A stretch of 64,000 bases of DNA from Chlamydiota bacterium (GTDB lineage: Bacteria; Chlamydiota; Chlamydiia; Chlamydiales; Simkaniaceae). The position numbers and the translations under genes are program-made. The stretch lies in NCBI GenBank assembly GCA_021772245.1, contig JAJFMH010000002.1, positions 4,690-68,689 of the forward strand. Reading direction: 5' to 3'. Positions 2,365 to 4,421 of this stretch are shown piece by piece. The notes beneath the pieces are model-generated. The model did no database searches. It saw only the letters and a list, made by a program, of their open reading frames with translations, and was not told where the DNA came from. Each line of letters opens with the position of its first letter. Positions within the stretch are counted from its first letter, which is position 1.

Positions 2365-2814
2365 TTATTCACTCGGAAGTCTTTCTTTGAGGTCTGTCCC
2401 AAAATAAATAAAGCTATCAGCAGCATTATCATCTGATCCAATCCCCACCTGCAAAGATCCTGTAAAAAGCTCCAAAAATGTTTTCCAATGAATCGTATCC
2501 AAAGAGAATAGAATCCCATTTTCACCATCACCTTTTACATAAAGATCTCTTTCAAATTCAATCTGATAAAAAAGGTCTTGAGCACTGGCTAAGATAAAAA
2601 ATTCACTATCGCATTTGATTGATATTGGAAAAGTTTCCCCTTTTGATAATCTCAAAACATAGGGGGAATTTTTCATAGTAAACAAATCTACCAGTTCTTC
2701 CTGGCTAAAATCCTTTGCATTTCTAATATCAGCATCAAATTCATTTGCCGAGATATTACCTATGCATCGAAAAAGAATCATTGTTGCGATCAATTTTATT
2801 CTATTTTTTTTCAT
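2365..2814 (-). CDS. Hypothetical secreted/periplasmic protein, candidate target of the BlaI-like repressor
   Basis: The ORF has the signal-peptide-like N-terminus MKKNRIKLIATMILFRCIGNISA. A GGAGA Shine-Dalgarno sits 5 nt before the ATG at 2814; the track start at 2826 is 4 codons upstream and abuts the operator. No family was recognised. Confidence 0.55.
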   Translation of the reverse strand: MKKNRIKLIATMILFRCIGNISANEFDADIRNAKDFSQEELVDLFTMKNSPYVLRLSKGETFPISIKCDSEFFILASAQDLFYQIEFERDLYVKGDGENGILFSLDTIHWKTFLELFTGSLQVGIGSDDNAADSFIYFGTDLKERLPSE

Positions 2815-2826
2815 GTCATTCTCCAT

Positions 2827-2842
2827 TACTACACTTGTAGTA
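2827..2842 (-). promoter_or_regulatory. BlaI/MecI/CopY-type operator dyad TACTACACTTGTAGTA (contains TACA-NN-TGTA)
   Basis: Perfect 7-2-7 inverted repeat in the 47-nt gap between the blaR-like stop (2862) and the next gene's RBS and start. It has the same TACTAC-N4-GTAGTA architecture as the site at 4317-4332. Confidence 0.6.
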
Positions 2843-2861
2843 TTTTAGGTTAAAAAAAAGG

Positions 2862-3923
2862 TTAAATTAGCCAAAACTTTCCGAGGAAAATTCCAACTAG
2901 AAAATAAGCTGCCATAACTAAAATGGCATAATGAAACACATTCCAATTTTTTTTAGTGTCTGAGCGCAGAGCTTTTATTCGTGATAGTACATTCATGGAG
3001 TCGAGTAGGTAAACTCTACTTGCATTAATTTCTTTTTGAAATTGCAGGTTTGCGAGTTTTCCTAAAGCAGTCGCTAAATGAATTTTTTCAATATCAAAAT
3101 CTTGCAATTTAGAATCTGCATCAAGCTCGAATTGGAAATATATCATTTTCCGCAATCTTCTTGTTGGAATCCAAGGAAAAAGAATTGAGATGATCGTTAA
3201 GCAAAGTCTAAAAAACGGGTCTTTCTTTTTGCAATGGCAAATCTCATGTGCTATGACTGCTTCTAACTCATCTGAGGAAACGCTTTGTATCCATTGTGCT
3301 GATAGCACAATTTTAGTGCGAAATAAGCCTGCTGTGAATGGAGATCCTTTATAAGCATTACTTGTAAGTATTGTAATATTGCACTTCTTCAAAGCCAATA
3401 AAATTTTTTTATTCTTAATTTTTTGGGTACAAGATCTGGCATCTTTCAAAATTGTTTGAAGGGAAGAAAAATCAAGCCATATTTTCCATAATCGAATGAT
3501 GGATAAAAGGGCGAAAATACAGATTGAAGCTATGATAAAAGTATGCAGCTGAAAAGAGTCTAAAATCTCTGCTAATATATCTACGAGAGAAAAGGAAAAT
3601 TGATCCTTGGTATACAATGTAATACCCATTTTAGGAACAAAAAAACTAAACATATCATGGGGCAGTTGACAAATGGCCACAAGTTTTCTTGAATCAATTT
3701 CACAATGGGCTGGAAAAACCCCTTTTGAAATTGCCCAATTGCTCCAGTTCATCAGACAAATATCTAAAGGAAGTTTGAATAGAAGAAGCATTCTTGCAAA
3801 GGCTTTAAATCTATAAGACCTAACTCGAAAAATAGCCAGAATAAACTCCACCAAGATCCATGAAGTTAGAAATGATAAAAAAATTGCTGAAATTATATTA
3901 AAAACCGTAAGGGAAAAAATCAT
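2862..3923 (-). CDS. BlaR1/MecR1-family M56 membrane zinc-metalloprotease-like signal transducer, without a penicillin-binding sensor domain
   Basis: 353 aa with multiple N-terminal TM segments, the HExxH motif (AHEICH) and a C-terminal TM. The start overlaps the blaI-like stop (ATGA). The protein is too short to include an extracellular PBP/beta-lactam sensor domain. Confidence 0.7.
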   Translation of the reverse strand: MIFSLTVFNIISAIFLSFLTSWILVEFILAIFRVRSYRFKAFARMLLLFKLPLDICLMNWSNWAISKGVFPAHCEIDSRKLVAICQLPHDMFSFFVPKMGITLYTKDQFSFSLVDILAEILDSFQLHTFIIASICIFALLSIIRLWKIWLDFSSLQTILKDARSCTQKIKNKKILLALKKCNITILTSNAYKGSPFTAGLFRTKIVLSAQWIQSVSSDELEAVIAHEICHCKKKDPFFRLCLTIISILFPWIPTRRLRKMIYFQFELDADSKLQDFDIEKIHLATALGKLANLQFQKEINASRVYLLDSMNVLSRIKALRSDTKKNWNVFHYAILVMAAYFLVGIFLGKFWLI

Positions 3924-4303
3924 TTACTTTTCATTTCCTTGATGAGTTTCTCGATTTCAGAAAGCTCATCCTCAGTAATGTTAGTATCTTCTTCTAGCAA
4001 ATATGAAACCATTTCAGAGGTATTTCCTTTAAATAGCTTTTCTTTAAGTTGAGCAAGAATTGGAGCTAACTTTTTTGATTGCTTCTTGTTTATCCAATAA
4101 AGATAGCAGGCCCCACTTTTTTCTCTAAAGAGATCTCCCTTTATTACCATACGATTCATTACAGTCATGATTGTAGTATATTTACGACTGTTTTGTAGTT
4201 CGTCACAAATATCTCTAACAGATGCTTTTTCTTTTTTTCTCAGAAGAGAATAGACTTCATTTTCTAACTCTCCAAGTGGTGCTCTTTTCATATTATCCCC
4301 CAT
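3920..4303 (-). CDS. BlaI/MecI/CopY-family winged-helix transcriptional repressor
   Basis: 127 aa. LGELENEVYSLL...ASVRDICDEL...YTTIMTVMNRMVIKGDLFREKSG.CYLY is typical of the penicillinase-repressor family. An alternative start is M5 at 4291. Confidence 0.75.
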   Translation of the reverse strand: MGDNMKRAPLGELENEVYSLLRKKEKASVRDICDELQNSRKYTTIMTVMNRMVIKGDLFREKSGACYLYWINKKQSKKLAPILAQLKEKLFKGNTSEMVSYLLEEDTNITEDELSEIEKLIKEMKSK

Positions 4304-4316
4304 TACCCGAAAACAC

Positions 4317-4332
4317 TACTACTATTGTAGTA
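4317..4332 (-). promoter_or_regulatory. BlaI/CopY-type operator dyad TACTACTATTGTAGTA upstream of the blaI-blaR-like operon
   Basis: 6-4-6 inverted repeat 14 nt upstream of the blaI-like ORF start. It differs by one base from TACA-NN-TGTA and shares the outer TACTAC/GTAGTA arms with the 2827-2842 site. Confidence 0.55.
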
Positions 4333-4421
4333 TTTCGTCAACCCATCCTATATTATCAGCTTCGAAAGAATCTTGTGATAAGGCATAATACTGATCTAAT
4401 TTCAAATAAACAGTTTCAGCT

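Follow-up and report, generated by a model that had tools for sequence, protein, structure and literature searches.

A predicted BlaI-type repressor, a sensor-less M56 protease and a small exported protein as a probable three-gene derepression module in Chlamydiota

We analysed a 64,000-nucleotide (nt) stretch of the genome of a member of the Simkaniaceae (Chlamydiota bacterium, assembly GCA_021772245.1, contig JAJFMH010000002.1, positions 4,690 to 68,689; hereafter the window, in whose coordinates all positions are given), in which three minus-strand genes lie head to tail: a gene for a BlaI-like repressor, a gene for an M56 protease, and a gene for a small exported protein, here called gene 3. 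We propose, with a probability of about 75%, that they form a BlaI/BlaR-type proteolytic derepression module of which gene 3 is the output. The evidence for this proposal includes two palindromic sites placed alike in chlamydial relatives, the alignment of repressor and protease with the BlaI/MecI and BlaR1 proteins of Staphylococcus aureus, and the persistence of gene 3 where the regulators have decayed. The genome assembly has 1,791,027 bp in 100 contigs, a G+C content of 36%, and is ~95% complete. The genes and the two predicted operators are as follows.

3920..4303, minus strand: gene for a winged-helix repressor of the BlaI/MecI family (blaI), 127 amino acids (aa), or 123 if translation begins at the ATG at 4291
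2862..3923, minus strand: gene for a sensor-less M56 membrane zinc protease, 353 aa, whose last transmembrane helix is the end of the protein
2365..2814, minus strand: gene 3, for an exported protein with a signal peptide, 149 aa; a longer open reading frame (ORF), 2365-2826, has 153 aa
4317..4332, no strand: operator 1, TACTAC-AATA-GTAGTA (TACTACAATAGTAGTA, minus-strand 4332-4317), predicted to fill the spacer of the blaI promoter, P1
2827..2842, no strand: operator 2, TACTAC-AAGT-GTAGTA (TACTACAAGTGTAGTA, minus-strand 2842-2827), between the M56 gene and gene 3

The stop codon of blaI and the start codon of the M56 gene overlap in an ATGA at 3920-3923, and 47 nt separate the M56 stop (2862) from the MKK start of gene 3 (2814); this 149-aa start is backed by the alignment of homologues. 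An earlier reading of the letters, made without database searches (the sequence-only reading), had described these genes, the ATGA overlap, the 47-nt gap and the dyads at 4317-4332 and 2827-2842, the latter with an exact TACA-NN-TGTA box (TACA-AG-TGTA), and all of this was found correct when the sequence was read again. That observation is confirmed, and the interpretation that was built on it is supported in part. The blaI frame contains two in-frame ATGs, the second of which, at 4291 (MKRAPLGELE), is preceded by GGGGGA. Since GGGGGA resembles a ribosome-binding site (RBS) and the N-terminus read from 4291 matches the MKR..FGELE N-termini of homologues, the 127-aa annotation appears to be four residues too long, and blaI probably starts at the second ATG, giving a product of 123 aa.

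At up to one mismatch, the dyad TACTAC-N4-GTAGTA occurs twice in the window, against 0.05 occurrences expected from shuffles. A genome-wide search for it, which the sequence-only reading had proposed, returned just two exact matches in the whole assembly, both at this locus, so the dyad is not frequent across the genome. Among its nearest variants, three in number, two fall within ORFs (844 and 261 aa), and the third has no complete ORF of at least 100 aa within 1.5 kb. As far as the assembly shows, the predicted regulon would be the cassette itself.

The arrangement is kept in relatives. When 60 of them were searched for the M56 protein, orthologues were detected in 15, at 24-32% identity; the order repressor, protease, small signal-peptide protein is kept in all 15, and both dyads are equivalently placed in 14, the exception being a locus with other cargo and extra dyads (L009). 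Scanning named genome records with a repressor alignment yielded 35 further chlamydial loci, from Simkaniaceae, Parachlamydiales, Waddliaceae and Anoxychlamydiales metagenome-assembled genomes (MAGs), and in 31 of them exactly two dyads are present at the equivalent positions, 1.35-1.55 kb apart. Among these 31 loci the half-sites are invariant in 29-31 at operator 1 and in 30-31 at operator 2, an invariance that is partly circular because the dyads in relatives were located by a pattern allowing 1-2 deviations; the occurrence of two sites at fixed positions in nearly every locus was not built into that pattern. The central four nucleotides take 21 different forms at the first site and 16 at the second, and the TACA..TGTA core of operator 2 is present in 21 of the 31 loci. 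Since the bases at dyad positions 7 and 10 mostly complement each other (A..T or G..C), the full palindrome reads TACTACR-NN-YGTAGTA. These data bear out the views that the two dyads are matching operators and that the three genes belong together as a unit.

The repressor matches the Pfam family Penicillinase_R (PF03965) with an E-value of 2.1e-20 and a score of 73.6 bits (cut-off 22.6); its residues 10-123 cover positions 1-115 of the 115-position model. A profile of its family matches MecI (1OKR, 4.5e-9), Mycobacterium tuberculosis BlaI (2G9W, 7e-9), and also S. aureus BlaI. S. aureus BlaR1 cuts BlaI directly at N101|F102 (PMC9834060). This cleavage position of MecI and BlaI (N101/F102) aligns with VSY|LLE in the window protein (…lvsy|lle… vs …LVLN|FVE…), and the hydrophobic residue at P1', L or F, is kept among homologues.

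The protease matches Peptidase_M56 (PF05569; 3.6e-11, 43.2 bits against a cut-off of 31) and carries the motif HEICH, so that the assignment of the pair to a blaI-like repressor and an M56 HExxH protease holds for both partners. A profile of 15 chlamydial M56 sequences aligns with residues 4-329 of S. aureus BlaR1 (8EXP) at an E-value of 5.6e-14; the aligned part is the entire membrane and zinc-protease region of BlaR1 and stops where its sensor domain (332-585) starts. H226, E227, H230 and E266, in the numbering of the window protein, are invariant in the 15 sequences, and the hydrophobic segments of the window protein are residues 5-34, 120-152 and 327-353. A C-terminal penicillin-binding sensor domain (transpeptidase-like, with SxxK) was not found in this protein, which ends at residue 353, and its score against the BlaR1/MecR1 model NF000326 is 37 bits, against a cut-off of 400. 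By these sequence criteria it is an M56 "BlaR-like" protease and not a BlaR1 equivalog, which agrees with the description of the pair as being of BlaI/BlaR1 type without a penicillin-binding domain. A role as a beta-lactam sensor was rejected because the sensor domain is absent. Since the protein ends with its last helix, only the loop that joins helix 2 to helix 3 (residues ~60-120) and a short C-terminal end would be exposed outside the cytoplasm; this end is conserved as GRFWIF (GKFWLI in the window).

Around the two dyads the 31 loci share further elements, from which candidate promoters can be placed.

4336..4341, minus strand: putative -35 box TTGACG of P1, from the consensus
4313..4318, minus strand: candidate -10 box TAGTGT of P1; its first two bases are the TA that closes the dyad, and 17 nt separate it from the -35 box
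2848..2859, minus strand: T-tract and AACC (TTTTTTTTAACC), between the M56 stop and operator 2, kept in 31 loci
2821..2824, minus strand: gene 3 RBS, GGAG, which the dyad precedes by 2 nt and the ATG follows after 6 nt

Most of the 31 aligned loci have a TTGACn 3-4 nt before operator 1, and the consensus there is TTG.c..AAATACTAC. In 13 loci inspected by eye, dyad position 15 is the first base of a hexamer that begins with TA and in most cases has T as its last base; this hexamer lies 17-19 nt from TTGACn and reads TAGTGT in the window and TATAAT, TACAAT or TAGATT in other loci. Operator 1 would occupy the spacer of an autoregulated blaI promoter. Upstream of the second dyad the consensus is TTTTTTAAcct.AAA / TTTTTTAAC(C/T)TnAAA, kept across the 31 loci in which the proteins are only 20-30% identical. 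The same element precedes stand-alone copies of gene 3, wholly or in part, and it is probably a promoter element of gene 3. A TAAAAT (2842-2847) abuts operator 2, and most of the 31 loci have a GGAG 1-10 nt beyond the second dyad, the consensus distance being 2-3 nt.

The distribution of gene 3 points to its role in the module. Among 400 sampled Chlamydiota genomes, strong M56 orthologues were detected in ~80 (~20%) and gene 3 in 126, and the initial impression that the module is unusual in a chlamydial genome had to be given up. These genomes contain 142 matches to gene 3, 56 of which lie on the same strand 45-235 nt downstream of an M56 gene, and 86 of which do not. When 28 genomes, picked among those where gene 3 does not adjoin an M56 gene, were tested for BlaI, a homologue was absent from 25, and 24 had no strong M56 orthologue. 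In one genus (g63 of family f8; loci L038, L039, L041, L044 and L047) the regulators have been lost stepwise beside an intact gene 3. One of these genomes has a truncated M56 gene with a stop codon and a half-decayed dyad; in the other four, all that is left of the M56 gene is a 70-100-nt piece of its 3' end (TGG to TGA, plus indels), the dyad is degraded, the T-tract element is kept wholly or partly, and gene 3 is intact. A tblastn search for M56 or BlaI remnants beside stand-alone gene 3 copies found one (L039), the short M56 stubs being visible only in nucleotide alignment inside one genus. The survival of gene 3 and its T-tract/AAC element beside decayed regulators argues that gene 3 has its own promoter and is the output of the module.

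A complementary picture is given by the M56 proteins, ~30 of which, in the sample of 400 genomes, have no adjacent gene 3; in the ten of these loci that were retrieved, other cargo stands in its place. A maximum-likelihood tree of 45 M56 proteins separates a clade with gene 3 as cargo (clade A, 29 of 30 rows) from a sister clade with other cargo (clade B, 15 of 15), with support of 100/99; two changes are enough to map the cargo label on the tree, fewer than in any of 500 shuffles. The sister-clade loci (L134-L143 and L009, from relatives G232, G110, G099, G386, G167, G322, G149, G216, G214, G367 and G052) mostly have dyads upstream of blaI and downstream of the M56 gene, followed by a different cargo: a signal-peptide flavoprotein resembling thioredoxin reductase (Pyr_redox_2, 1e-44), a rhodanese (4e-10), a weakly methyltransferase-like protein, and several proteins without an assigned family. 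Such matching of M56 clade and cargo would make sense if the two clades responded to different cues, each with an output suited to it.

M56 proteins of the sister clade have a conserved cysteine in the outer loop (NPFSC or NPLSCxSC) and often a C-terminal one (FWIC*). Together with the flavoprotein and rhodanese cargo, these features suggest a thiol or redox cue for that clade.

Gene 3 might instead encode a detached sensor or co-sensor, docking on the outer loop of the M56 protein in place of the missing sensor domain and giving a three-protein sensing device. In favour of this idea, the signal in BlaR1 is displacement of the outer loop EL1, which binds the sensor domain (PMC9834060), and here the sensor is gone and an exported protein is encoded next door; moreover, clade-A M56 proteins occur almost exclusively with gene 3 (29 of 30). 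Against it stand the 25 of 28 tested genomes that have gene 3 but no BlaI, the visible decay of the regulators beside an intact gene 3 in genus g63, and the clade-B M56 proteins, in which this wiring serves unrelated cargo and gene 3 is missing. A sensor repressed by the very system that it activates would also be an odd design. We therefore regard the co-sensor role, which the sequence-only reading had left as an option, as quite unlikely, and gene 3, on its genomic distribution, as more likely the output.

A different doubt concerns operator 2, which might lie outside any promoter, so that a single transcript from P1 would cover all three genes and the bound repressor would act only as an elongation roadblock, or the dyad would act as an RNA hairpin near the RBS. 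The gap of only 47 nt, the distance of 2 nt between dyad and GGAG, and the failure to assign a clean -35/-10 pair are compatible with this, and as RNA the dyad would fold into a 6-bp stem with a 4-nt loop. Against the roadblock, stand-alone gene 3 copies that have only an upstream stub keep the T-tract/AAC element wholly or partly and stay intact, pointing to a local promoter, and in the CenIR system of Clostridioides difficile the downstream exported gene is regulated separately from, and far more strongly than, the regulators (PMC13492132). Against the hairpin, the stem halves are invariant at 20-30% protein identity, with no compensatory changes, and the same sequence stands in the P1 spacer, which fits a DNA site recognised by a protein; an RNA hairpin role was rejected on these grounds. 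Taken together, an operator 2 without a promoter of its own seems unlikely to us. Much less probable still is that the repressor is a CopY-like metal sensor, freed from DNA by copper, with the M56 protein not its signal transducer. Its best NCBIfam match by E-value is indeed the CopY/TcrY model TIGR02698 (1.8e-11), operator 2 has the TACA-NN-TGTA core of a "cop box", and PetR/PetP of Synechocystis is a copper-responsive pair of BlaI/M56 type (bioRxiv 10.1101/2020.07.31.226407). That match, however, scores 44.4 bits where the cut-off is 121.95. A C-terminal CxCx4CxC metal site was not found either, the last 60 residues of the repressor (…EIEKLIKEMKSK) being free of cysteine; a CopY-type metal repressor was rejected on these two counts. 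The regulon contains no copper-handling gene, and the strict association with an M56 gene whose catalytic residues are intact speaks for proteolysis. Of the two likenesses initially drawn, to beta-lactam and to copper sensing pairs, the BlaI/BlaR1 type holds and the copper one does not.

In the proteolytic derepression model that we prefer, a dimer of the BlaI-family repressor would sit in the resting state on the two 16-bp TACTACR-NN-YGTAGTA operators. At operator 1, within the spacer of the blaI promoter and overlapping its -10 box, it would let repressor and protease limit their own synthesis; at operator 2, before the gene 3 RBS, it would shut a second promoter and possibly read-through as well. 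A cue from the envelope or membrane, received by the outer loop or the C-terminal residues of the M56 protein, would activate the cytoplasmic zinc site, and the active protease would then cleave the C-terminal dimerisation helix of the repressor close to VSY|LLE. Both operators would thereby be freed, with a burst of exported gene 3 protein as the result. What the sequences themselves show are the gene families, both operators with their conservation, the lack of a sensor domain, and that in other genomes gene 3 does not depend on the regulators; the DNA binding, the cleavage, the promoter positions, the signal and the role of the gene 3 protein in this model are what we infer.

Besides the partial circularity of the dyad count, several points weigh against the model. 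The module is known, here and in its chlamydial relatives, from sequence alone. The residue that aligns with the P1 asparagine of MecI is tyrosine, threonine or cysteine in the chlamydial repressors. A generic scan for consensus promoters and terminators called neither of the proposed promoters, its counts being at the level of shuffles, and no convincing -35/-10 pair can be assigned at operator 2: a -10 box inside the dyad would put the transcription start in the RBS, and one at the TAAAAT lacks a conserved -35 box. Finally, the outer loop of the M56 protein contains no conserved cysteine or histidine that would hint at a ligand.

The gene 3 product has a predicted mature mass of ~14.4 kDa and an acidic isoelectric point of 4.3. 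The family searches that had been proposed for this 149-aa signal-peptide protein, whose family the sequence-only reading could not name, matched no described family or PDB fold: nothing was found in Pfam or NCBIfam, a profile search of PDB sequences gave no match below E 0.68, and a word-based homologue search recovered only gene 3 itself. A profile built from 14 homologues, by contrast with the single-sequence search, reached 761 clusters in a set of 1.84 billion representative proteins, 471 of them at E<=1e-10, with lengths that are almost always 125-160 aa in the best 150 of the 761 clusters. The named homologues are few, and all are "hypothetical protein" entries from Parachlamydiales, Chlamydiae and Simkania MAGs (NCBI). 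AlphaFold2 models are mostly beta, with a mean confidence (pLDDT) of 81 from 14 sequences, and a pLDDT of 88.7 and a predicted template modelling score (pTM) of 0.76 from 128 sequences. Two Foldseek comparisons with the PDB yielded nothing; for the model with a pLDDT of 88.7 there was no match at E<1 (best E 1.2, TM<=0.22). Conserved residues comprise one tryptophan, one serine, a proline and glycines (…LFS.DL..WK.F.EFFTG…), and the family has no conserved cysteine or histidine, which argues against an enzyme or a metal site. One cluster (P0007; Parachlamydiales MAGs, e.g. OGN64343.1) contains a 226-aa member that is a tandem duplication of the gene 3 domain.

A bolder extension of the model, which we consider improbable as a whole, is that the gene 3 protein is the founder of a chlamydia-wide exported family with a fold unseen in solved structures and is both the output and a feedback ligand of clade-A M56 proteins, whose outer loop and GRFWIF end would read its periplasmic level or occupancy. 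If so, the cassette would be a self-contained homeostat for one envelope component, and the lineages without regulators would have fixed the cassette "on".

The closest published analogue is CenIR of C. difficile, and the comparison supports well the view that the chlamydial module is a new example of a recently recognised kind. CenI/CenR (J Bacteriol 2026) likewise pairs a BlaI-family repressor with an M56 protease that has no beta-lactam domain, has no beta-lactamase in its regulon, and is followed by a gene for a small signal-peptide protein, its most strongly repressed target; this 136-aa exported protein, CDR_0474, encoded 215 bp downstream, is derepressed ~500-fold (PMC13492132). The same study reports that a transpeptidase domain is present in only ~6% of roughly 15,000 M56 proteins, 96% of which are encoded near a blaI-like gene, that CDR_0474 is restricted to C. 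difficile, and that the authors could not find the inducing signal of CenIR (PMC13492132). The two systems differ in that CenR has a tail of ~125 residues outside the membrane, whereas the chlamydial M56 protein stops at its last membrane helix; in that cdr_0474 lies 215 bp downstream, whereas gene 3 follows after 47 nt; and in that the CenI regulon comprises ~12 genes, whereas the chlamydial dyad occurs only in the cassette.

The S. aureus pairs BlaI/BlaR1 and MecI/MecR1 (8EXP, 1OKR, 1SD4; PMC9834060) resemble the chlamydial pair in the alignment of the M56 protein, including HExxH...E, in that of the repressor over its whole length, cleaved helix included, and in having two palindromic, autoregulated operators with a TACA/TGTA core. 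Unlike them, the chlamydial system has no penicillin-binding sensor (BlaR1 332-585), its output is not a beta-lactamase or a penicillin-binding protein, and its genes stand in series on one strand with the repressor first, whereas in S. aureus they form a divergon. The mycobacterial operator is of a like design, TAC-N-AC-N4-GT-N-GTA. The M. tuberculosis pair (Rv1846c/Rv1845c; Sala et al. 2009, cited in PMC4757040 and PMC13492132) too has a sensor-less BlaR beside blaI; unlike here, the regulon includes blaC and ATP synthase genes, and the pair is not known to be followed by a small exported cargo gene. In Synechocystis sp. PCC 6803, PetR is a BlaI-family regulator degraded via PetP, a short membrane protease of M48/M56 type that lacks a sensor domain of its own; the pair responds to copper and switches cytochrome c6 and plastocyanin (bioRxiv 10.1101/2020.07.31.226407), whereas nothing in the chlamydial cassette hints at a response to metal. 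Distinctive features of the chlamydial module are the absence of an extracellular tail, the compact in-line layout with operator 2 inside the 47-nt gap, a regulon confined to the cassette, and a cargo family widespread in one phylum. Our literature search on BlaI/BlaR in chlamydiae found no paper describing this module.

Regulation in environmental chlamydiae is almost unexplored because most of them are not genetically manipulable. In this setting, the full predicted circuit of a signal-responsive switch, from repressor and protease to both operators and their target, is legible from sequence alone, in a cassette found in about one fifth of the sampled genomes of the phylum, and a concrete regulon can now be tested for Simkaniaceae, Parachlamydiales and Waddliaceae. 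The module adds a Gram-negative, intracellular case to the finding that most BlaIR systems are unrelated to beta-lactams. That an unnamed family is the preferred cargo of the switch suggests that gene 3 is important to the chlamydial envelope or to contact with the host. The finding leaves the understanding of BlaIR mechanisms as it was. It is solid, though of an ordinary kind, and is of value for the testable regulon and the unnamed exported family that it provides in a phylum whose regulation is poorly known.

Two further observations concern the history of the cassette. In the M56 tree the window protein forms a long branch (1.44 changes per column) that groups weakly (88/86) with a Waddliaceae MAG, and other Simkaniaceae M56 proteins fall apart from it in at least two further sub-clades. 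The cassette tree is thus at odds with the family assignments, which suggests exchange among chlamydiae or old paralogy. A BlaI/M56 pair of clade-A type with both dyads, but no gene 3 after the second one, was also detected on a 2.05-Mb contig (L077, CAWIGG010000002.1) of a MAG labelled Spirochaetota; either this MAG is mislabelled, or the cassette has passed from one phylum to another.

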